From Diadema antillarum (taxonomy: Eukaryota): a stretch of 64,000 nucleotides of DNA. A program made the translations under genes and the position numbers. Within the stretch, counting starts at the first letter, position 1; each line of letters starts with the position of its first letter. Shown here piece after piece: positions 3,570 to 64,000 of this stretch. Where the stretch lies: assembly GCF_040938485.1 (NCBI RefSeq), contig NW_027271016.1:1844436-1908435 (forward strand), read 5' to 3'. Below the pieces are notes generated by a model. That model saw only the letters and a program-made list of their open reading frames with translations. It made no database searches and was not told the origin of the DNA.

Positions 3570-5265
3570 TCTTCAATCAAACTATATATATTTTTTTTAC
3601 ATATTGCACAAAATGTTGCCTTTGAGGACATAAACTTTGATACTTACAACTTAAAATAAATTGTTTACCTAATAATATTATGAAATTGTATGAAAAAACA
3701 AAATCGTTCCTCGGATGTATAACACCATATAACACCTTTTGACATGAAAACAATTGCAAGGAATCAATTTTACTTTTTTCCTCTTTAACCAATGATTCCC
3801 AGAATACTGACACCTTCCGACAATTAAAAAACAGATGTTCTATTGTCTCCGGTTCACTTTTACAAAAGGAACATCTTGAGTCATCTTTTCTCCCTATTCG
3901 AACAAGCCACGAATTAACGGGGATCAAATTATTCAGTATCTTATATTGCGTTATTCTTAATTTTGTCAAACTGGCAGGTAATTTGAAAAGAGATTGAACA
4001 TCTTCAAGTCCAATGTCATACATAACGTCAAAACGATCAAAAACACTAGATTTTCCAGGGTTATTCAAGTGCAAATATATATTGTATAAATGCTTTGTTG
4101 TTACGTTATGTAATTCCAACCATCTACCCTGAACCCAGATTAAAGGAATAATACTCAGGGGTTTAATAAAGGGGTGATAGTTTTGACGAAGAAAAAAAGC
4201 TTCCACTCACTTGGCATCTTCTTGAAGCAATCAAGAAGAGTGAAATACTGAGTAAACTGTAAACCTTTACCCTTACAATCCTTCCAACGCAGAGGTCGGC
4301 CGTACTCATCTAACATATCAGTACCTTCAAAAAACCTTTCTCTACTATGTTTATTAAACATAGACTTCCCGTGAAACAAAATGTATTTATTATTCCAGAT
4401 TATTTGATTGGGTATGCTTAATTCTCTGTTCTGAAGGAGGGACCACGTTTCTAATACCTCTAAAAACCACCGTGAAACATTAATCTTTAACTTTGAAACA
4501 TCAAAGTTGCAGAAGAACAAAAATTCTCCTCCTACAGATGCTAACAAATTCAAACAAATGGATTTCCATCCTTTTGAACATGACCCAAATAACCTCTGCA
4601 CCCATTTTATTTTTTGAGCTTGCATCATTGACTTTAAACAGCACATTTTCAAACCTCCCTCCTCATAATCTTTTACTAAAACATCGCGCCTTATTCTATC
4701 TGGGCCTCTCCAAATAAATTCATAAATAACTTTATTCACGTCATGTATAAAAGAATCTGGCACTGAAACTATACTTGCGATATATAGCAACTGAGATAAA
4801 GCATAAGTCTTAACAATCTGAATTTTCCCGTAGAGGGATAAATCTCTGAATCTCCACCTATGCAGTTGTGATTTAATATTCATCAAAATTCTTTGTAATT
4901 GCGCCTTCCGGTCGTGAAAAGAATACGAAATATCTATTCCTAAAACAGTGAGAACAGATACAAATTCTACATTCCTAAATTGTTGCACGTCCGTCTTAGG
5001 TGCAGTAGTAAACACCGATGGACCAATTCGCATCACTTTTGTCTTATCATAATTAATTGATAAAGACGAACAGATAGCAAAATCATCTAAAATCTTTGCA
5101 AGATTAAGAAAACATTGATCATTTGTTAAAAAAACTGTGATATCATCAGCATACATAGAAAGTTTTATTTCCTCCAGTACACTTAACTTAAGCAAAATGT
5201 TTGCTGCGTACCCAGTGCATTTCTTCTCATGTCTAAAACCCAACCAAGATTTATGAACCAATGTT
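3570..5265 (-). mobile_element. 5'-truncated non-LTR retrotransposon (LINE) ORF2 fragment: RT plus C-terminal Cys-rich domain, frameshifted
   Basis: ORF 4155..5261 (-) has RT motifs including YADDITVF. ORF 3577..4206 (-) in an overlapping frame has the C-terminal C..C...HLFFNC zinc-knuckle-like motif. It sits inside the 4-kb ASIC intron. Confidence 0.8.
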
Positions 5266-9354: not shown

Positions 9355-9560
9355 CCGTGATTGGCGGCAACATGGGCTTGTTTCTCGGAGCGAGCGCACT
9401 GACGGTGGTCCAATTCGGCGAGTACATCGTCGACGAGATTAGCGGCTGGTGCGTGTGCGGGAAGAAGAAAAACAACGCGAAAGTCAACGGCGAAACCGCA
9501 AAAGTCGAGCCGGTACAAACCGTCAGCGCCAAGGACGCGTGGAGTGACGGAAACGTCTGA
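9355..9560 (+). CDS. ASIC/ENaC family channel terminal exon (TM2 plus C-tail, TGA stop at 9558..9560)
   Basis: Acceptor tttaaaacag|CC. The translation AVIGGNMGLFLGASALTVVQFGEYIVDEISGWCVCGKKKNNAKVNGETAKVEPVQTVSAKDAWSDGNV* matches the ASIC TM2 motif GGQMGLFIGASILTVLE. AATAAA-like signals lie downstream near 9760 and 9888. Confidence 0.85.
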
Positions 9561-11760: not shown

Positions 11761-12779
11761 AGAGGTTCAAACCATCATAAGACAAATGCAAAGATAAGAT
11801 ATACAAAACAGTATTAAAATCAGAACTGACTCTAAATTACAACAGAATAATGGATCACAATCGACCAATCCAATACACTAAAGATTTCACTTGATATTCA
11901 TCTGGTGATCGACAAGTAATTTAAGCATTCAATTTGTTGATTGGCGAATCCCTTCTAAATCCCCTCGATAAACATGCCTGATAGATTGTAACAGATTATT
12001 TGTTAGGTTTCATTCTATGGCTGAAGAAAATTTCACAGGCGTAAAATGATGCAAGGATCTGACTATCATCACATGATTATGGGATATTCTGACCCATTCC
12101 TTGCCATTCCACATCAGTTTGGTTACAGGGGTATGAATTCAATCGGCTAGTGGTGTCAAACGGCTAAGTTCTAAGTCAAAGTCCTTATGACGATGAGGAA
12201 AAGAAATCTTTATCATCCTAATTACGATCAATACATGAATCATAACATCACAACATTTAAAAAGCGAACCTATTTTGTCATTTTCTAAAGAGTACTCTCG
12301 AACTGACGGCAGTGTGAGCATACTAATAATTAAGATTGCGACGATTCTTATAAAGTTACCCTTAACTGGTCAGTATATATGACTAAACAAAAGTGAGAAA
12401 ATAAATGAAGAAAGGATTTTGTGATTTTTTTTCTTATATTCCATATGGGGTTTATGCTTGAATTGGTATATATACGTATATGGTAATCGTCTAAATCAAT
12501 CCATTAATTAGGGATTTTTAAAAATTTTTTTAGGCCTTACTATTATGACAAGCATATTAATAATAAAATGTAAGGGACAGTGGAATTTGTGCATTGTCGA
12601 CATTTAGGAGCCGATTGACTCAAGATCAAAATTTGTCAATTTTTTTTTCGAAATCTTCTTCTTCTTCTTCTGTTGTATGAAGTCTCCTGAATACTTTTTT
12701 AGATCAATGTACTGCTGTAAAGCTGCTATACATCGTATCTCAAAGCTGCCGTCACACACAAAAAAAAAATCTGAGGCAA

Positions 12780-13930
12780 ATGATTTGCGTGAGTTTTCAG
12801 GTTTGTCCGTGAGGCGACACACTTTTTCCAATTATTGCGTCTTTTCACTCACGCTTACTGAGTCACTTGACTCAGTAGTGAAACAGCTGAGTCAAACAGC
12901 TGAGTCAAATGACTCATTTGCGTGAGTCTTAAGTTTGTCCGTGTGGTGACACACTTTTGCCAAATATTGAGTCTTTTTACTCAGTAAAGTCACTAAATGA
13001 GTCAAGTGACTCAGTATGCTGAGTCAAGTGACTCACTGTGTGATAATCGAAACGCAAAATGATCGAAACGTCTCTTGTTCAGCATACTGATCCAGTCGCT
13101 GACCTACGCATGCAGCACGACCGTAGACGGAGTAGGGAATCAGATCCTATATCTTGTGGTAGCCTATCCCTAAAGCCAGGCTGACACTTGTACGACTTTT
13201 GGCCACGATTTTGTCGTGGCAAGTCGTGACCAACATTTTGAACAATTCAAAATTCTCGTCCCGACATGGCACGCAGGTCACGACGGGTCTACGCACACTT
13301 CATGCCAGTTTACGACTAGTTTGCGCACTGGCACGACTCGAGTCGTGACAATGCGTGCCACAGAATCGTGCAAGTGTCAGCCTGGCTTTACCTATTCCTA
13401 ACCTACTCTTAACTTATTCCTAATACCTAACTACACATCACGAGACAATGCTTCTAATATATACTCATGTCGTAAAATTGTATTCATGTATGTGGTTACT
13501 GTTTTGAAATAGATTTTCTATTCATTTATTCAAGACTTATCTTCTGATAACAGAGCTGAATATTTCATAAATTATATGAAATTATAAATATTTGAAAATT
13601 ATGCAAATTACCATCCGCGACAAAATCAGAAATACATTTCAGAAATTATTTTCTGAATAACAGTTAATTCTTTTGCTTGAAGTTATTACATGATAGATTA
13701 TAATCGTCTCATTGGACTCACATGTCTCATTTATAACAGTTACTGAGTCAAATAGAGATGATGCAATATGAGTCATCGATTTCGTGACTCATTATTGTAA
13801 TTCGGTGTGCGTCATTTTACTCGTTAGATTCGGTAAAACGAGTCTTTTTACTCAGAAGAACTTAAAAGATGTGTCACAACAGCAATGACTCAGTAGATTT
13901 GACCTAAAATGAGTCAACTGACTCGGGTAT
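12780..13930. mobile_element. Composite foldback-like element with TGAGTCA/TGACTCA-rich subrepeats flanking a central MITE
   Basis: There are two ~130-bp direct repeats at 12780..13030 (tttgcgtgagt.ttcaggtttgtccgtg.ggcgacacactttt.ccaa.tattg.gtcttttcactcag..). Related units with gagtctttttactcag recur at 13740..13930. At least 12 copies of TGAGTCA or TGACTCA occur, several as the perfect palindrome GAGTCAcTTGACTC. Confidence 0.6.
13178..13385. mobile_element. MITE-like element with ~15-bp terminal inverted repeats (CCAGGCTGACACTTG ... CAAGTGTCAGCCTGG)
   Basis: TIRs are read directly at both ends. Internal palindromes are present (cacgactcgagtcgtg). It lies between the two TGAGTCA repeat blocks. 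Confidence 0.65.
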
Positions 13931-14212
13931 TTTTTTTTTGTGCGTAACCATCCCACGGTGTCACGGCCTGGGTTGGTCAAGTTGATGGGAGATTTCCCAG
14001 TATAGGTCCAAGCCTGGCGCATTCTGACAGAAAGTAGACCGCAGTTTTTTTCGAAATGATAAAGATGTTGTTATGGTGTTACATGCTGCGACAGCTGCTG
14101 CGTGCACGAAGTTTGGGTGACGTCAAACACGGAAACACACTAGTATACGTGACATAACACAGTGAAATTCGCCCTACAAGAGATGTCTTTTTTTTAAGGT
14201 GATGGTAGAAAT

Positions 14213-14478
14213 TTAGCACTCGAGGACTACGTGCTGTTCTGCAGAAGGCAAGTCGTCTATAAGCCTCCGCGCCAATGCTACCAGCGGTGGCTCCAGGCTT
14301 TCCATCCACTGCTCTCCCTTTGCAAGACTCGCCGAGATCGTCGGCTCGAGATCGTGGAGCTCACCCAGCCTCCGCTGACGACGAATAGCGGTGATCAACT
14401 CGGCGAGGAAGAGCATGACCAACAGGGTAGCAACCAGTATCTTGTGAAGAGACTCATTTACCGCTGTGCTGTTATCAT
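14213..14478 (-). CDS. PARP4: PARP4 terminal coding exon (C-terminal MVP-interaction-like region, TAA stop at 14213..14215)
   Basis: Acceptor aacttttag|AT. The translation (N)DNSTAVNESLHKILVATLLVMLFLAELITAIRRQRRLGELHDLEPTISASLAKGEQWMESLEPPLVALARRLIDDLPSAEQHVVLEC* aligns to the human PARP4 C-terminus GRECLLDLIATMLVLQFIRTRLEKEG...AFEAIKQASEWVRRTEGQYP...LELGNDWDSATKQLLG. It starts in phase 1, joining the previous exon. Confidence 0.75.
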
Positions 14479-14563
14479 CTAAAAGTTAAAAAAAAAAGAT
14501 TATACATCATTTCCAGTAAAACTGACATTCTGTGTCGCGAGTCACAATTATCGCAGAGGCTTT

Positions 14564-14639: not shown

Positions 14640-16160
14640 ATCAAATTGCTGGATCCACTTACTCACATATTCAACCTTTCCATACTGTCTGGAAAATGTC
14701 CCAATTCTTTAAAGATTGCTAAGGTAAACCCAGTGTTTAAGAAAGATGATTCTTGTCAAATTAGTAATTATAGACCAATTTCTATTCTTCCTAGTATTTC
14801 CAAAATTCTTGAAAAAATGATATATGATAGGTTTTATAAATTTTTGCATGATCATGCAGTTTTGAATTTACATCAATATGGTTTCCGAAAGAATTATTCT
14901 ACAGATTTGGCTTTGGTCCAGTTGTATGATCAAATTACAAACGCAATGGCAAATAGAAAACATGTTATAGGAGTTTTTATGGATTTATCTAAGGCGTTTG
15001 ATACGTTACAACATGATATTTTACTTAAAAAGTTACAGTTTTATGGTGTTCGCGGTGTTGCACTCTCGTGGTTTAGGGACTATGTATCATGTAGACAGCA
15101 ATATGTTATACATGATGACATGTCGTCAAATATTTTACCGATAAAATGTGGTGTGCCCCAGGGCTCAATATTAGCCCCCCTTCTCTTTTTGTTATATATC
15201 AATGATATTGTTAATTCGTCGTCTATATTAACATTTATGTTATGCCGATAACACGAATATTTTTTATTCCCACGATAATATAGAAACGTTGGTATCTACA
15301 CTTAATGCAGAGTTACCAAATGTATCAAACTGGTTTAAGAATAATAAATTATCACTTAGTATTGATAAAACAAATTATATTTATTTTAAGCATATGAAAA
15401 CTCACACAGATGATCTTGTAGATAATATTAGGATTGATAATGTATTTCTTGAACGTAAAAGTTCTATTAAGTTTTTAGGCATTTTTATTGATTAAAACCT
15501 AACCTGGAATGAACATATACGTTATGTTACAACCTGTATTTCTAGAAATATAGGTGTTCTTTCAAAGATGAAAAGTTATCTTCCTGAACATACTCTTTTT
15601 ATGCTTTACAATATTCTTTAATCCTACCATATATTATGTATTGCAATCTAGTGTGGAGTACAAGTTCAAAAACTAAACTCAACCCTATTTATTTACTACA
15701 AAAGAAAGCCGTTCGCATCTGTACTGGATCACAATACTTAGCCCACACCAGTTCACTTTTTTATCAGTTAAAAACACTGAATATATTTGATATAAATACA
15801 TTACATTCTTTGCTTTTTATGTTTAAGTATTTGAACAACTTACTTCCAAACATTTTTCACGATTTCTTTAAACTGAATTATACCGTTCATTCATATCCCA
15901 CTCGTAATTCGCAAAATGTTCATTTAGTAAATCCCAGATTATTAATTGCACAAAAATCTATAAGACATGATGGACATGAATACACTCCCAGATTATGTTA
16001 AATCATGTAAAACTTTATATTCTTTCAAGGATAGATTGAAAACTACATTACTGTCAATTTACAATCTATGAATATAGCATTTGAATATTTATTTTGTTTG
16101 GTTTGATCACATTTCTTTTCCTGTAAATTGGATTTAAAACTACAATAAATATACGCAATG
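14640..16160 (+). mobile_element. Degenerate CR1/L2/Jockey-type LINE 3' portion (RT and C-terminal domain, frameshifted, internal stops)
   Basis: ORF 14646..15251 has RT blocks ..NYRPISILP.., GFRKNYST, FMDLSKAFDTLQH and GVPQGSILAPLLFLLYINDI. YADN(T) appears in a shifted frame at ~15241. ORFs 15289..15495 and 15636..16001 continue the C-terminal domain. It lies just downstream of the PARP4 stop. Confidence 0.8.
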
Positions 16161-18842: not shown

Positions 18843-18869
18843 CCATTCGTATCATCCAAAGGTTCTTAC

Positions 18870-20137
18870 ACTGCTCTGCCGGTGCAAAATCCTGGTGACG
18901 TCCTCGGCGCTCAGCTGCTTTCGGCGGACAGTGAAAGGAAACCAAAGCGCGGAGACCTCTCGCTCTGGCTTCCTCTTGGGTTCTTCCTCTCCTCTAGAGT
19001 AAGAATCTTCCAGAAGATATAAATCATCGGCGGCGGCTGCCTTATCATCCAAAGCAGCAAACATCATGTCTTCTGCCACTGTTACTCGTGAGGGCAATCC
19101 ACTCTCAGCTAGTTCTCGCGTAGGCTTCTCATACTCCTCAATGGGTTCCCAGTACTCCTCCTCATCATCCTCACTCTCCTCATAGTATGACATACCTCTT
19201 ATGCCTTGTGTTTCTAGAAGACCCCCAGCATACGGTACATCACCTATTCTATCACGGAGTAATTTTTCTCTTCTGCCTTCGTCATCTCGTTCTGCTACCA
19301 GCGAATGTGGTAGTTGTCTCCGTGTAGAAGAAGTTAATAGAGGCGGCGGCGGAGGCGGCGGCGCCGGCGGTGGCGGCGCTATCATCGCGGCGGGGATGTC
19401 ATCACCCCCCTCCGCTATGAAATATGTTGACTCATCAAATGCGGGGGGAGGGGGCGGTGTTGGTTGCTTGGTCGATCTCTTCATGAGTTGCTCCGGCTGT
19501 GGCGGTGGCAATCCACCTGCTGGTGTTGGCGCTGGTGGCACCGCCCCTGGTAATCGCCTTGGCTCTACATATCCGAGGTAACGGGACCCGTATCCGAGCG
19601 ATGGTACTGGTGGTGGTGGTGGTGGTGGCACCGCTCCTGCGTCTGATGTTCGTTTTCGTAAAGGAAGCCGGCTCGGCAAATCTAGCCCAGATTTGAGGCT
19701 CTTGTCAAAGGCGCTGAATTGCGCGGCGCTGTCAGGAAGGCGGTCGGATTTCTCCTCCAGATCGTGAAGTCTACTCCCTCTTTCACGCAGTTCACTGGCA
19801 TCAGTGGGGATATCTATATCGCGAAAACTCGCGGGAATTTCACGTTGCTTCTTTTTCATTGGCTTCGGCTTCCTTTTCTTTTTCTTTTTTGATTTCCAGA
19901 AAGAAAATGACGGCAGCCCCAGTGCGAATCCCCGTTTTATCACTGCCCGTTTACGTGTGTCCATCTTTAGACTATCGGTTTTCAAATAATCCCTCTCTAT
20001 ATCTATCGACATGTCAATCGCCATGGATCGAAGGCGAGCTATCTCGTCATCTAAGTCAGTAAGTGGTGTGGGAAGTGGTTTGGGCGTTGGTTTGGGCCGT
20101 GGTATCATAGGTGTCACTGGCACTTGAGTAGCCTCGT
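18870..20137 (-). CDS. PARP4: PARP4 large proline-rich exon (422 codons)
   Basis: Acceptor ccttattgcag|AC in phase 1 and donor AGT|gtaaga in phase 0. The continuous ORF (track 18852..20123) reads ..KKKKKRKPKPMKKKQREIP..PPPPPPPVPSLGYGSRY..PPPPAPPPPPPPLL..EESEDDEEEYWEP... It occupies the position of the large low-complexity P/S-rich exon of human PARP4 between the vWA tail and the MVP-binding C-terminus. Confidence 0.65.
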
Positions 20138-24099: not shown

Positions 24100-24440
24100 C
24101 GAGACCGACACCCACGAGTCATACAGCTCACAAGTCATACAGCCCATGAGTTATACAGCTCACGTTTCATACAGCCCAATAGTTAGACACTATGCTAACA
24201 AGGCCCACGAGACCGACACATTAAGCCCCCTGCTGAATCTGTCGAACTCGTGGGTTGTTTTTACCTAGTGTCGAACTCATGGACTGTATGACTCGTGAGC
24301 TGTATGACTCATGGGCTGTATGACTCGCGAGCTGTATGACTCATGGACCTGTTTTCAGTGTCGAACTCGTGGGCTGTATGACTCGTGAGCTGTATGACTC
24401 ATGGACCTCTTTTCAATGTCGAACTCGTGGGCTGTATGAC
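24100..24440. mobile_element. Foldback element built from 16-bp subrepeats (gagtcatacagc / gctgtatgactc)
   Basis: Left block 24100..24200 contains cacgagtcatacagctcacaagtcatacagcccatgagttatacagctcacg. Right block 24240..24440 contains tandem ctgtatgactcgtgagctgtatgactcatgggctgtatgactcgcgag.. in inverted orientation. Confidence 0.7.
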
Positions 24441-60354: not shown

Positions 60355-63300
60355 ATGGGACCAAAGTGACACACCCATTCAAGCAGACACACCCATTCAA
60401 ACACATCTCAAGATGGAATGTGATGCTGAACGTTGTGATTCATCACATGCAGGCAGTGCAGTAGCCAATGCAACTCCTGGTGGAAGCTTGCCAGCGGCAG
60501 TCACTATACAGCATATGGAAGTAGATAGCAATTCTTGTCAGGTTTCCCATGGTTCAGGGACTGACTTGGAGAAGGATGGAACATCATTTGCTTCAGAAGT
60601 TGAGCAGGATAGAAATGTAGTGCCAGAATGCAATGTCCCAGACAAAAGGGAAAGCCAGACAGCAACTGTCGAGGAGCAGGATCAAGTAGGGTCTGGGCAT
60701 TCAAACTCTGCTCTATTGGACACTGTTGAAGAGGGAATGGACACAGGAGGTGATTTTCCCAGTCTGTCTCATGAAAACAGTGAACAAACAGTTTGCGATA
60801 CAGAGAGAAATCTTGCAATTTCAAGTAGTGTTGAGGAAGCCACAGAGCAAATGGAGGTAAGTTCCACTTCCATTGGAGAGCAACCAACATGTTTGCAGCT
60901 GACCACAGCTGATGGATGTTCTGAGATAACAGTGACTGCAGAGGCAAAGCTTGTTAGTGAAGAAACAGCAACTGATGTGGTAGTGAGTGTTTCACCTGGT
61001 AAAGAAACTGGAATGGCGAAAAGTGTGCTCGTAGAAAGCTCATTGTTAAGTTCCTGTTTGAAGGTGAAAGGACATGGAGGTTTGGATACTGCAACTGAGT
61101 CTCTCAAAGGAGCAAGCAGTGTTCCACCAGCAGAACTTGCAGAACAAGAAGTCGAGAACTTGCAGCCAGGTGATGATGGGTCTGCAGAATGCATATCTTC
61201 TGCCAGGAGTGTTGATACTTGTAAGGTAGTGACGGACAAGATCCAAAGCATAAACAACTCAAATAAAGAAAGAGTGCTGCATGACCCAAACTTTGACGGG
61301 GAGTGCAGTTCAGCAGAGAAAGCAAGTGGTGCTACTTCATACACAGCTCAGACAATACATCCTTCCCAGGCCAATGGAGGAAAGAGTGATAAACTTGTAG
61401 AGCACACAGAGTGTCCAAAAGAAAGAGAAGCAAGTGATGAGGAAGTATCATGTGAAACACCCCAGAACCTTGATATGGCGCATGAACCATTGGTTATACC
61501 AACAAACACGAGTGCTGGAGCAAATGTTTTTGCAACCGAGAATGTTGGCCCTTGCTCAGAACTACCAAGCTTGAGATTAGTGAGCTCATTTGAAAAACCA
61601 TGTGTGTCAAACATTTATGAAGCAGGACCATCACAGGCCTTACTTGTGCCAGAGACAGACTTGCAAAATGATCATAAACCACATACATCGATAGAGATGG
61701 AAGCTACAAAACCGCAAGGGGTGGAAAATAGTTGTGAACTTGATACTCAATGCAGGGGAGCTATTGTCCCCAATAATGCAACAAAAGAAAAGTCTTTCAG
61801 TGCAAACCCATTAAGATCAGATACTGCAGTTATTGCTAATGATACCATCCCAGAAAAAGATGAAAGCGTGTCTGAAACTGCACTGGCCTGGAAAGGAGAA
61901 AAACAAGAAACACCAAAGACTGTAGAATCAGGGGAAAATACAGTGAAAACTGATCTTGTCGCCAGTGAAAACATGGACATAGAAGAATGCCCCAACAACA
62001 GAAAAGAATATGCCCCAGAGGTAGCTGCTGGTAATTGTGGGAGAGGATATACTACAAGTGGCAATCAGGTAGATGAAAGTTACTTGGCAAAAATGGAAGT
62101 GACTGAGTCAGAGAAGGATGATTATATCATCGATGTGAGTCAAGAAATGGGGGAGAGATCAATTCAAGAGGTACCAGCGGTTAGCAGTTCTGCACCAGGT
62201 AAACAGAATATGGTGGAGGTTTCAGTCAGTGAAAAGGATATGACTGACACAGCATTAGAGAATATGTGCTGTAACTCTTTTGAAAAAGAAATTGATAAGG
62301 AAGAAACAAAGGACATTGACTCAGAGAATAATAAAGCTGCCACCCCTACTCTAATCCCTGACATTCCACACAGTGCTGACAAGATATGTGAAGAATCAAA
62401 CGAAGACATTCCACTGCAAGAGAAAATGGATAGCCTGCCACTCAGTTCCAAAGTTGCTGGCTCACCAGAAATAATTCCACCTGGTTGTGCATCATCTACT
62501 CCCACCCCACCAGAACTGCAAAGGGACATGCAAGATGAGAGATTGCATGGGGATGAATTTGCCCCAGGAGCATTGATAGAGTCACCAGACAAACCTGAGG
62601 GAGAGTCACAGGAGATGGAACAGAGCCCATCCTGTCCAGAAGCTGATGGTACAGGATTTGCAGAAGGAACATCAAATGGTGCAGGATTTATAGAAGGAAC
62701 ATCAGATGGCACAGAAAAAACTGAGTCAGCGCACACAGGATGGAGTGCAGGAAATGAAAATGAAAGATGTCCAGAAATGCCAACATCCAGAGTTTTAAGC
62801 ACTCCAAACAGCCCACCCTCAGAACTCCAAAGAACCTCTACAGGAGACAAGACAGTGGAGGAAGTTAAAACAATGAATTATGACACATGCACCGATTTGC
62901 CTAGCGTAGCAGCCCCGGCAGGGGACAGAGATGTGGAGTCACGATCACATCCCGATCCTCCTGTCCTAGCTCCAGAGACGATAAGAGGTGGAACATCTTC
63001 TTCCTGTGAAATTTCGGCTGATGAACCAATGGAATGCACTCCTGGCTTGCAGGACAGCACACCAGAAGAGGCTCCTGAAGACTCTCCTGATGAAGTAACA
63101 ATACCACGGCTAGAAGCAGAAACAAAAAAGACTCAGAATGACTCTCCTGAGGATAGTAAAATCGTAAATGATGATACAGAAATGCTGGAACAATGTGCAA
63201 GGGATGGAACAGCAGTAGCAGTACATGAACCTGTATTGAGCCAAAGTGGTGCAGAAAGAATTCAAAGGGATCAAGACAATGCAGCTCAGCATTATGAGAG

Positions 63301-64000
63301 TGTCAGTTCAGTGCCTGAAATGGTCAGTGAGAGTCAAGAGAGGGTCGAGCCAAGCAGTAAAATCATAACTACACAGTTCACCGGAAGCTCCGAGCGCCAG
63401 AGTGAAACATTGCCCAAGTCAAAATTATCTGAAATGATGACAAGAGAGGATATAGAGCAAGAGATGGAGCTATCTCATGAAGAAATCCCTTCACAATTGG
63501 TGGATGTTTCAAAGAAAGATGTGGACAATGATAATAGTCAAAATTCTGAAAATGAAGTCTCAGATTTTGAGGCAGTTAGGCCTGGAGAAAGAATTGCTGA
63601 AAACCTTGGAAACACAACTGTGCTTTCTGCTCAACAAGAGGAGATGCAACTTAGTTCTGAAATATCTGATGAGACAAGAAAGGTGGATGAACAGAGTATT
63701 AGCAATAAAATTGATATTTGTGAAGACAAGTCTCAAACATTAGATGCTGTAACAGAAAATGAGAATGATGAAGACAGAGCTGAGCAAGGAGAAAAGTTTG
63801 ACTCCTCATCCAATCTGTCAAAGCATCCTGTTAGTGATGGTGATGTTGCATTCTTAACTTGTGTAGAAGTTGAACATCCTAGTGATGTTGACGAAGAAAT
63901 GCAATCTTGGACAGAGACTTGTGAAAGCAAACCTCAAGTGTCAGAAACTGCAACAGAAAATGAGAATGATCAAAATAGAGATGAGCAAGTAGAAAAGTTG
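60355..64000 (+). CDS. Very large coding exon (at least 1215 codons, open at the window end) of an unidentified gene encoding an acidic Ser/Glu/Thr/Asp-rich low-complexity protein
   Basis: Strong acceptor tttttttctttctttcatcatcag|ATGGGACC at 60353..60354. A single frame then runs without a stop from 60355 to 64000: ..WDQSDTPIQADTPIQTHLKMECDAERCDSSHAGSAVANATPGGSLPAAVTIQHMEVDSNSCQVSHGSGTDLEKDGTSFASEVEQDRNVVPECNVPDKRESQTATVEEQDQVGSG ... TENENDEDRAEQGEKFDSSSNLSKHPVSDGDVAFLTCVEVEHPSDVDEEMQSWTETCESKPQVSETATENENDQNRDEQVEKL. The last ~250 nt show the start of a tandem protein repeat. The supplied ORF track lists only antisense ORFs here (60504..63930, minus), as expected for a purine-rich sense strand, and lacks this frame because it has no in-window stop. 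Confidence 0.75.

Follow-up and report, generated by a model that had tools for sequence, protein, structure and literature searches.

A cluster of AP-1-type heptamers beside a PARP4-like gene of Diadema antillarum, probably the remains of a palindrome-rich DNA transposon

Introduction

The subterminal AAACGG hexamers of Ac/Ds are transposase-binding repeats, as are the 12-bp TnpA motifs of En/Spm, which occur in direct and inverted orientation, and non-autonomous derivatives of both systems keep only the motif-bearing ends. Foldback-like transposons, among them Drosophila FB, Galileo (P superfamily), Tetris, and TU of Strongylocentrotus purpuratus, are non-coding and modular, with ends that bear tandem subrepeats around a unique middle. 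[quoted passage not shown] Foldback elements have also been described in a sea urchin, as cited in PMC4079207 (Liebermann et al. 1983). Near the ends of piggyBac, palindrome-like internal repeats of 17 to 19 bp are bound by the C-terminal zinc finger domain of the transposase (PMC5861402). Mobile elements have been linked to AP-1 as well; the human endogenous retrovirus LTR18A is reported to be an AP-1-dependent enhancer by MPRA (PMC9712623). LTR10 elements are reported to act as enhancers in colorectal cancer (PMC466953).

In the sea urchin Diadema antillarum, 30% of the genome is unclassified repeat (bioRxiv 10.64898/2026.05.24.727502). Here, we analyzed a cluster of AP-1/TRE-type heptamers (TGAGTCA/TGACTCA) in a 64-kb stretch of D. 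antillarum DNA, hereafter the window, to which all positions refer. We propose that the block harboring the cluster is probably a decayed non-autonomous cut-and-paste transposon, in which the palindromes would once have acted as multimeric transposase-binding sites. The cluster is most likely an ordinary kind of sequence, namely, a motif for protein binding that is repeated within an old transposon without coding capacity.

Results and Discussion

The heptamers lie in a sharply bounded block closed by inverted repeats

Between positions 12859 and 13916 (1058 bp) we found 14 exact heptamers, all with the TGA(G/C)TCA consensus of an AP-1/TRE module, whereas ~0.18 would be expected (Poisson P of ~4e-22, a value that overstates independence, since the copies arose via internal duplication). 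The initial annotation had counted at least 12, which proved to be an undercount. The whole window contains 27 exact copies compared to 11.0 +/- 3.6 in dinucleotide shuffles, none of which reached 27, and the density outside the block (13 per 62.9 kb) is that of chance. The clustered heptamers are confined to a block of ~1.2 kb with sharp boundaries, from 12751/12757 to 13942/13948 (Table 1).

At either end, the block is delimited by CAC-A10-T, a perfect inverted repeat of 14 nt that is the sole such pair in the 64 kb and can be extended to 20 nt with 90% complementarity. CAC followed by at least nine A residues occurs just twice in the window and at least nine T residues followed by GTG just once, with the heptamer cluster lying between the two members of this pair. 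Terminal inverted repeats are therefore present at both ends, as in a non-autonomous class II (TIR) transposon. Neither of the candidate boundary pairs (12751/13948 and 12757/13942) is flanked by an exact duplication of four or more bases. The best candidate is a possible degenerate 7-bp target-site duplication (Table 1), whose bases can alternatively be read, equally well, as the outer part of the 20-nt imperfect inverted repeat.

The sequences outside the block are unrelated to each other in either orientation, with best local scores of 22 and 26 (shuffles, 19.9 +/- 2.4; maximum, 28); a larger element with outer ends was therefore rejected. The possibility that the A10 and T10 runs are the poly(A) tails of two inverted retroposons was also discarded, since their orientation is wrong for the block body and the flanks have no similarity.

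Table 1. Features of the heptamer block and the adjoining gene end, in window coordinates
Feature	Position	Strand	Remarks
Left terminal inverted repeat, GTCACACAC-A10-T	12751..12770	+	Perfect core CAC-A10-T, 12757-12770
Possible degenerate 7-bp target-site duplication	CGTCACA 12750..12756 / CGTAACC 13943-13949		5/7 match, direct reading
Left subterminal unit L1, ~132 bp	12783..12915	+	Heptamers 12859, 12868, 12888, 12901, 12910; unit HMM E=5.7e-45
Left subterminal unit L2, tandem copy of L1	12916..13045	+	Heptamers 12998, 13007, 13020, 13029; unit HMM E=2.5e-40
Middle domain, first part, non-coding	13046..13162	.	No other copy in the window
Nested hAT-like MITE	13171-13390 (with flanks, 13163..13398)	.	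Inverted ends start TAAAGCCAGGCTGACACTTG
Middle domain, second part, AT-rich, non-coding	13399..13699	.	Contains minus-strand AATAAA, 13530-13525
Right subterminal region	13700..13928	.	Heptamers 13744, 13769, 13785, 13886, 13910; near-copy TGACTCG at 13919
Right terminal inverted repeat, A-T10-GTGCGTAAC	13929..13948	-	Perfect core A-T10-GTG, 13929-13942
Final coding exon of the PARP4-like gene with its stop codon (14213-14215)	14213..14482	-	Polypyrimidine tract and AG acceptor precede the exon

Tandem units on the left, degenerate copies on the right

The left arm consists of two tandem units, L1 and L2, which are 86 to 88% identical across their first ~70 bp. Within L1, a 13-bp tandem duplication, AGTCAAACAGCTG, is repeated 2.5 times at 12877-12909 (TRF period 13, 95% matches). 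The right subterminal region contains the motifs of the left units in a more degenerate form and in both orientations, including degenerate palindromes at 13715, 13809, and 13840, and the unit HMM matches it at 13839-13924 on the plus strand (E=1.2e-5) and on the minus strand (E=0.029). An alignment of L1, L2, and two right-arm segments gave a mean column identity of 58%. The two arms, of 230 to 290 bp each, are separated by ~430 bp of unique, unrelated, non-coding sequence. No open reading frame longer than 61 aa was found anywhere in the element, the longest (61 aa) being located in the nested MITE; exact look-ups of the open reading frames overlapping the element returned no record, and control exon open reading frames were equally absent. 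The middle region was also considered as an insertion flanked by the 7-mer ATAATCG; this was rejected and the 7-mer treated as chance, since the region has no inverted ends.

When the arms were compared with each other, the alignment score was 100 in direct and 75 in inverted orientation, and the predicted fold pairs 150 bases of the left arm with others of the same arm and 27 with the right arm. The block had been described initially as foldback-like. This description holds for the tandem subrepeats (~132 bp, two copies; 13 bp, 2.5 copies) and for the non-coding middle, but not for the long, mutually folding inverted arms. In foldback elements of the FB/TU/Galileo/Tetris type such arms make up much of the element, whereas the strictly inverted part of the block amounts to just 14 to 20 nt, and its arms are not clean mirror images, align directly as well or better, and fold on themselves. 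They are also far shorter than those of Galileo or Tetris (0.5 to 1.7 kb), and the best candidate target duplication matches at 5/7 positions, in contrast to the 7- to 10-bp duplications of foldback elements.

The same properties of the arms bear on an alternative history, in which the block was never mobile and is a complex repeat specific to this locus. A palindromic seed would have been amplified by slippage, unequal exchange, and local inversion into a small palindrome-rich minisatellite, and the terminal A10/T10 match would be part of a local rearrangement. Tandem duplication is visibly ongoing in the block, the direct match of the right region to the left units is better than the inverted one, and each arm folds mostly on itself; the single copy in the window and the lack of an exact target duplication also fit. 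However, a perfect 14-nt inverted repeat lying exactly at both edges is unexpected from slippage. The unrelated, unique sequence of ~430 bp between the arms also speaks against this history, as do foldback or TIR elements with similar subrepeats elsewhere in the window and in unrelated eukaryote-like contigs (see below), and we consider an origin of this kind unlikely.

The heptamers are parts of a longer palindrome

Inspection of the sequences around the heptamers revealed that they are parts of a longer repeated palindrome with the consensus AC-TGAGTCA-NN-TGACTCA-GT. The back-to-back perfect palindromes noted in the initial annotation were recovered as five perfect GAGTCA-NN-TGACTC sequences (12860, 12902, 12999, 13021, and 13911). 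Another five copies carry two mismatches (12608, 12969, 13715, 13809, and 13840), the first of which lies outside the inverted repeat. The positions flanking the heptamer (-2/-1 and +9 to +16) are 57 to 86% conserved, and the minimal core common to the palindromic repeats is GAGT-N6-ACTC rather than the AP-1 heptamer; this core occurs eight times in the window (0.52 expected), with seven of the eight copies inside the block. The stretch most conserved between the arms is GAGTCTTTTTACTCAG, which is identical at 16/16 positions between its copies in L2 (12969-12984) and in the right region (13840-13855) and contains no AP-1 site. Overall, in the comparison among copies within the element, the heptamers are not selectively conserved over their surroundings, and the conserved unit extends past them.

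These observations are relevant to the reading in which the block is a transposon-borne or exapted AP-1/bZIP platform, whose 14 TREs would be bound by Jun/Fos-type factors. As an enhancer, the block would then respond to stress or injury and act on either the PARP4-like or the ASIC-like gene, or on the two together. An exact TGAGTCA can in principle be bound by AP-1, and 14 exact consensus heptamers are packed in 1.06 kb. The extended form GCTGAGTCA, typical of NF-E2/Maf sites, is present at 12886, 12899, and 13018, and a downstream enhancer could well lie where the block does, with the 3' ends of two convergent genes on either side. Human precedents exist for transposon-derived AP-1-dependent enhancers, as reported for LTR18A (PMC9712623), which resembles the block in being a mobile element with consensus AP-1 sites near genes. 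LTR18A is a retroviral LTR with few sites and measured activity, whereas the block is a probable DNA-transposon relic with 14 sites that are palindrome halves. Against a platform, the conserved unit is the longer palindrome, with no AP-1 site in its best-conserved copies; internal duplication in the recent past, and not independent gain, produced the sites; the arms have decayed (to the 58% mean column identity given above); and a MITE interrupts the block, with no constraint apparent. Taken together, we regard the platform reading as very unlikely.

A hAT-like MITE is nested in the block

MITEs of the hAT type have 8-bp target-site duplications and ends beginning with YARNG. The element nested between the two parts of the middle domain agrees with this type, with ends that begin with TAAAG, a 25-nt inverted repeat at 96%, and flanks that carry a candidate 8-bp duplication, CCTATCCC (13163-13170) and CCTATTCC (13391-13398). 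The flanks match at 7/8 positions in direct reading, and the duplication is probable rather than certain, since the flank is CCTAT-rich. Folded as single-stranded DNA, the MITE reaches -69.1 kcal/mol (z = -11.7), and a single copy is present within the window. The initial annotation was right that the MITE exists; its limits, placed at 13178-13385, are corrected to 13171-13390.

A probable non-autonomous transposon with putative subterminal binding sites

Under the transposon proposal, the block would be an old non-autonomous class II element of ~0.96 kb, or 1.19 kb with the later-inserted MITE. The block ends in the CAC-A10-T terminal inverted repeat, with a palindrome-packed subterminal region of 230 to 290 bp inside each end, and the palindrome copy number was raised by the ~132-bp and 13-bp internal tandem duplications. 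The motifs are found at both ends and in both orientations, an arrangement that appears similar to that of subterminal binding-site arrays. The palindromes may have provided multiple sites for a dimeric domain with which the family's transposase, or an accessory protein, bound DNA, and clusters of weak, short sites near the ends could have conferred specificity on the enzyme and helped to pair both ends, with analogues in Galileo, piggyBac, Ac/Ds, and En/Spm. Since the AP-1/TRE heptamer is contained in either half of the CA-NN-TG version, the heptamers would be a by-product of the palindrome rather than the outcome of selection toward bZIP binding. With its arms diverged, no clean target duplication, and the MITE interrupting it, the element now appears dead. 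Of the two possibilities raised in the initial annotation, a bZIP-binding platform or simply transposon architecture, the latter is supported by the longer palindrome, the tandem duplications, the 14-nt terminal inverted repeat, and the tolerated MITE insertion.

Several observations count against the transposon proposal. The 64 kb contain one copy, which lacks a clean target duplication, and the direct alignment of its arms is no worse than the inverted one, as could equally be expected of a local tandem array. Beyond the proposed left end lies another palindrome, of degenerate form (12608-12621), and the end signatures of piggyBac, Transib/CACTA, and hAT are absent. A second copy was not found in the window by BLASTN (word size 9) or nhmmer, and no homologue emerged from pattern scans of metagenome, viral, and prokaryotic collections.

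The likeness to Ac/Ds and En/Spm lies in the short terminal inverted repeats and in the ~200 to 300 bp at each end with many motif copies, which are oriented both ways and in part paired tail to tail; the differences concern the motif, the sequence of the ends, and the kingdom of the host. The block end starts with CAC and not with CACTA or YARNG, and neither the 8-bp target duplication of hAT nor the 3-bp duplication of CACTA elements was seen at the boundaries. Assignment of the host element to hAT was rejected on these end and duplication signatures. Transib and CMC elements have target duplications of 5 bp and 2 to 4 bp, respectively, beside a CAC terminus. The flanks of the block read TCACA/CGTAA and ACA/CGT at 12757/13942 and CGTCA/TAACC at 12755/13944; with no exact duplication at the boundaries, Transib and CACTA-Mirage-Chapaev were also rejected. 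Similarity to piggyBac was limited to a short motif. The piggyBac internal repeat TGaGTcAAaTTgACGAC (PMC5861402) is close to TGAGTCAAATGACTCA at 12901-12916 of the block, and TGCGT, the target of the piggyBac zinc finger, occurs at least five times in it. Membership was rejected because no TTAA or CCC...GGG termini are present at 12751/12757 or 13942/13948.

As it stands, the element is one more unclassified repeat and matters little in itself. It does carry a caution for motif scans, as a dense cluster of perfect transcription factor motifs can be a by-product of the palindromic binding sites of a transposon.

Similar palindromes occur in unrelated repeats

Two other heptamer clusters of the window were considered as copies of the element and rejected. 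The cluster at 62104-62728 is an acidic coding exon. The cluster at 24305-24401 belongs to a second, unrelated foldback located 10 kb away (24110-24440), which is built of 16-bp subrepeats containing GACTC[A/G].

The double-palindrome pattern was found at seven loci of the metagenome collection, with no homology beyond the motif, and at least four eukaryote-like metagenome contigs (L001, L002, L003, and L006) contain arrays of 15 to 25 heptamers in 13- to 22-bp subrepeats. The pattern was also present at one viral locus and three bacterial loci, and at one of the latter, from Dyella (L009), the palindromes belong to a repeat array; viral contigs gave no match to the conserved unit pattern GTTTGTCCGTGNGGNGACACAC. 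As the TGAGTCA-NN-TGACTCA palindrome recurs in repeat arrays of bacterial and bacteria-like (metagenomic) DNA, and AP-1 is absent from bacteria, the motif alone does not name its binding protein.

Two unrelated elements in one 64-kb window, together with the eukaryote-like contigs, suggest a further reading, in which selection, rather than coincidence, accounts for the recurrence of TGAGTCA subrepeats in a class of eukaryotic foldback/TIR transposons. We give this generalization a very low probability. If it were true, either a widespread transposase domain would recognize a TRE-like palindrome or the elements would recruit host AP-1. Since AP-1 is activated by stress and injury, such recruitment would couple the transcription or mobilization of the elements to stress, and the Diadema copy would incidentally be a stress-responsive platform beside the PARP4-like gene. 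If host AP-1 binds these arrays, this would also be a case, among invertebrates, in which DNA transposons spread sites that respond to stress, here next to the vault poly(ADP-ribose) polymerase gene of a species whose conservation is of concern.

The block lies downstream of a PARP4-like gene

The gap between the two convergent genes, estimated initially at 4.6 kb, measures 4.65 kb, and both of its annotated edges agreed with our results. On the plus strand, a C-terminal ASC match (Pfam PF00858; 9309-9560; weak, with 22 bits versus a cut-off of 23.6) places the end of the ASIC-like C-terminal exon at 9560. On the minus strand, the PARP4-like stop codon annotated at 14213 was confirmed by protein match, since the exon at 14216-14482 corresponds to the C terminus of an annotated PARP4-like protein of D. 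antillarum (XP_071477881.1/XP_071487843.1). XP_071477881.1 is encoded by a second PARP4-like copy, probably on the alternative haplotype.

The right end of the block lies 265 nt past this stop codon, and the single minus-strand AATAAA within 2.2 kb downstream of the stop is found in the second part of the middle domain (Table 1). If this AATAAA is used, the right arm would lie inside the PARP4-like 3' untranslated region, and a block partly within it, as the initial annotation had suggested, is plausible. An RNA-level role has been considered for such a location, in which hairpins of the right arm would affect mRNA stability or feed a small-RNA pathway. The right arm is 265 to 513 nt past the stop and upstream of the sole minus-strand AATAAA, and its minus-strand RNA is predicted to fold at -61.1 kcal/mol compared to -45.3 kcal/mol in shuffles (z = -4.2), an excess, however, that is expected of any palindrome-rich repeat. 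A weak Rfam match to the mir-580 hairpin (12839-12935), the only result of the Rfam scan, scored 28.8 bits against a gathering score of 83, on both strands, and lies in the left arm, outside the putative untranslated region. Moreover, the left arm, which has most of the heptamers, would not be transcribed with the PARP4-like gene. We therefore consider a function at the RNA level very improbable.

The PARP4-like gene itself is represented by 29 collinear tblastn matches from 48159 down to 14216 and has PARP, VIT, and VWA domains. Its last exon is 99% identical to residues 1740 to 1813 of the PARP4-like protein P0011. One large exon query was 100% identical to part of P0017, and the VIT exon query matched exon fragments at 53 to 65% identity.

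The heptamer is part of a longer palindrome

The cluster of AP-1-type heptamers (TGAGTCA/TGACTCA) reported in the initial annotation is real and was placed correctly, its count of about 12 being slightly low. By exact search, 14 copies were found between 12859 and 13916, where ~0.18 would be expected (Poisson P ~4e-22, a value that overstates independence because the copies arose through duplication). The 64 kb as a whole held 27 heptamers, compared with 11.0 ± 3.6 in dinucleotide-preserving shuffles, none of which reached 27, and the 13 copies in the 62.9 kb beyond the block correspond to chance density. Five pairs are arranged as perfect GAGTCA-NN-TGACTC palindromes (at 12860, 12902, 12999, 13021 and 13911), and five further sites match this arrangement with two mismatches, one of them (12608) beyond the block limits. 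This degenerate copy, GAGCCGATTGACTC (12608-12621, inside GAGCCGATTGACTCA at 12608-12622), lies ~130 bp outside the left end proposed here; it could be due to chance, or to an original element or an adjacent fragment that once reached further left.

When the 14 sites were oriented and stacked, conservation reached past the heptamer, with the consensus AC-TGAGTCA-NN-TGACTCA-G. The feature common to all palindromes is GAGT-N6-ACTC, seven of whose eight occurrences in the window fall inside the element (0.52 expected). Two of these copies read GAGTCTTTTTACTC and lack the AP-1 heptamer; together with the next AG, they provide the longest exact match between the left and right arms (16/16, at 12969 and 13840). 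Given the extended conservation and the AP-1-free best-matching copies, the heptamer is not the conserved unit but one variant of the interior of a longer palindrome.

Anatomy of the element

The features of the element are collected in the table. CAC followed by at least nine A occurs twice in the window and at least nine T followed by GTG once; this rarity, and the exact bracketing of the heptamer cluster, indicate that the CAC-A10-T inverted pair is not a chance occurrence. A flank comparison found no similarity between the sequences outside the two ends, in direct or inverted orientation, which rules out two inverted retroposon tails as their source. No clean target duplication was found at either candidate boundary (best, 5/7, CGTCACA/CGTAACC), and no homologue turned up in scans of metagenome, viral and prokaryotic sequence collections. 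Membership in piggyBac, Transib/CACTA or hAT was rejected, their signatures being absent.

Coordinates of the element, its nested insertion and the motif arrays found elsewhere
Feature	Position	Strand or source	Details
Left terminal inverted repeat, CAC-A10-T	12757-12770	+	Exact reverse complement at right end; 20 nt at 90% when extended
Left subterminal region, two tandem ~132-bp units	12783-12915, 12916-13045		86-88% identity over first 70 bp
13-bp tandem duplication	Within 12783-12915		Inside first left unit
Middle between arms			~430 bp; unique, AT-rich, non-coding
hAT-like MITE	13171-13390		220 bp; interrupts the middle; 25-nt inverted ends at 96%, starting TAAAG
Right subterminal region	13700-13928		Left-region motifs, more degenerate
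Right terminal inverted repeat	13929-13942		Exact reverse complement of CAC-A10-T
TGAGTCA-NN-TGACTCA array	L009 3160-3400	Dyella jiangningensis (bacterium)	In ~55-bp repeats
TGAGTCA-NN-TGACTCA array	L005 744-1040	Prokaryotic-looking metagenome contig	Repeated palindrome
TGAGTCA-NN-TGACTCA array	L007 3775-3895	Prokaryotic-looking metagenome contig	Five iteron-like copies
Heptamer arrays	L001, L002, L003, L006	Eukaryote-like metagenome contigs	Ga0335396_10137232, Ga0209390_10081777, Ga0105053_10242838, Ga0335396_10190885, respectively

The element had been called foldback-like, a term that applies in a loose sense only. In inverted orientation, the left and right regions do align significantly better than shuffles (score of 65 versus 17.7 ± 6.6), but the full arms align better directly (100 versus 75 inverted), and a profile HMM of the unit matched the right arm with an E value of 1.2e-5 on the plus strand and 0.029 on the minus strand. 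When the element minus the MITE was folded as a single strand, 150 left-arm bases paired inside the left arm and just 27 with the right arm. The element is better described as having a short, genuine terminal inverted repeat and subterminal arrays rich in palindromes, with motifs in either orientation. The direct similarity of the arms, the single copy in the window and the absent target duplication would also fit a purely local repeat. We regard this explanation as unlikely: the terminal inverted repeat, which has no second pair in the window, and the unrelated sequence of the middle speak against it.

The nested MITE bears a hAT-type signature, with a probable 8-bp target duplication, CCTATCCC/CCTATTCC (13163-13398 including flanks), a call somewhat weakened by the CCTAT-rich flank. 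It folds into a very strong hairpin (z = -11.7), and no second copy was found within the 64-kb window.

Probable transposon architecture and the palindromes as putative transposase sites

Taken together, the short inverted ends, the few hundred base pairs at each end crowded with one short motif in both orientations, the lack of coding capacity, the internal duplications and the later insertion that was tolerated make up the anatomy typical of non-autonomous cut-and-paste DNA transposons. The subterminal repeats of Ac/Ds and En/Spm are textbook cases of transposase-binding motifs. Such motifs are transposase-binding sites in the systems studied so far. In Galileo, the THAP domain binds sites within the tandem repeats that make up the long ends, and the authors of that work argued that enzyme specificity comes from many short sites (PMC3688188). 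The piggyBac transposase recognises internal repeats that are palindromic, one of them reading TGaGTcAAaTTgACGAC (PMC5861402). From this anatomy and these precedents, we infer that the GAGT-N6-ACTC palindromes are putative binding sites of the family's transposase, and would once have been contacted by a dimeric DNA-binding domain of that enzyme.

Of the two readings first offered, a transposon-borne bZIP platform or simply transposon architecture, the evidence supports the second, and nothing in the sequence favours the first. Every exact TRE is a potential site for an AP-1 enhancer, and transposon-borne AP-1 enhancers are documented in humans (PMC9712623); still, such a function for these candidate sites appears improbable.

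The same motif in other DNA

The TGAGTCA-NN-TGACTCA palindrome also occurs in repeat arrays of prokaryotic-looking DNA, in two metagenome contigs and a Dyella genome, so the motif alone is no indication of a bZIP protein. These arrays resemble operator, iteron or REP-type repeats. The four eukaryote-like metagenome contigs carry arrays of 15 to 25 heptamers in 13- to 22-bp subrepeats such as ATGAGTCATGTCACACACATGA, arranged as inverted arms in L001 and L003 and as tandem arrays with palindromic pairs in L002 and L006; no homology to the element was found past the motif. A second, unrelated foldback repeat lies 10 kb from the element, inside a PARP4-like intron (24110-24440), with 115-nt arms of 82% complementarity, a 5-nt loop and 16-bp subrepeats, CTGTATGACTC[A/G]TG[A/G]G, three of which contain an exact TGACTCA. 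This recurrence of TGAGTCA-bearing subrepeats, in the nearby foldback and in several eukaryote-like contigs, is the one lead that merits following up.

Neighbouring genes and window content

The PARP4 stop proposed initially was confirmed at 14213-14215, and the protein matches show that the window is sea urchin DNA. A polypyrimidine tract and an AG acceptor precede the terminal minus-strand exon (14216-14482), which shares 99% identity with the C terminus of the 1813-aa XP_071477881.1, [quoted passage not shown]. This protein and its cluster mate XP_071487843.1 (1835 aa) each gave 29 collinear tblastn matches, from 48159 down to 14216, the latter being closer to the window, with many matches at 100%. 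The gene, with PARP, VIT and VWA domains, is complete at 14213-48159 on the minus strand. The two annotated copies (73 to 100% identity per match; contigs of 2.47 and 4.25 Mb) are probably both haplotypes of an unpurged 1.73-Gb assembly. The draft assembly of this species has 1.73 Gb, 84.4% duplicated BUSCOs, 38.5% GC and 42.85% total repeats, with 29.96% unclassified (bioRxiv 10.64898/2026.05.24.727502).

An RNA-level role of the element in the PARP4-like 3' UTR is very improbable, considering that its basis is position and fold energies only and that any palindromic repeat would yield such energies. A sub-threshold match to the Rfam mir-580 precursor (12839-12935, both strands; 28.8 bits, the gathering score being 83) most likely reflects nothing more than the palindromes in the left arm.

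The plus-strand exon ending at 9560 weakly matched the ASC channel profile at its C-terminal end. Homologous-protein searches with 18852-20123 (minus strand) and 60413-64000 (plus strand) gave no hit, none of the 8000 candidates collected for each having scored, although the former matches residues 1301-1723 of P0017, a PARP4-like protein of this species, at 100% identity. The Pro-rich, low-complexity words of the former probably saturated the candidate list, so negatives from this search on low-complexity queries are uninformative. The plus-strand stretch 60314-64000, stop-free for at least 1229 codons and running past the window end, is acidic and Ser/Thr-rich, contains four chance heptamers and presumably represents one giant exon encoding a disordered protein. 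LINE reverse-transcriptase fragments lie in the last PARP4-like intron, directly upstream of the terminal exon (RVT_1, 14646-16001, plus strand), and within the ASIC-like gene region (RVT_1 and zf-RVT, 3577-5261, minus strand).
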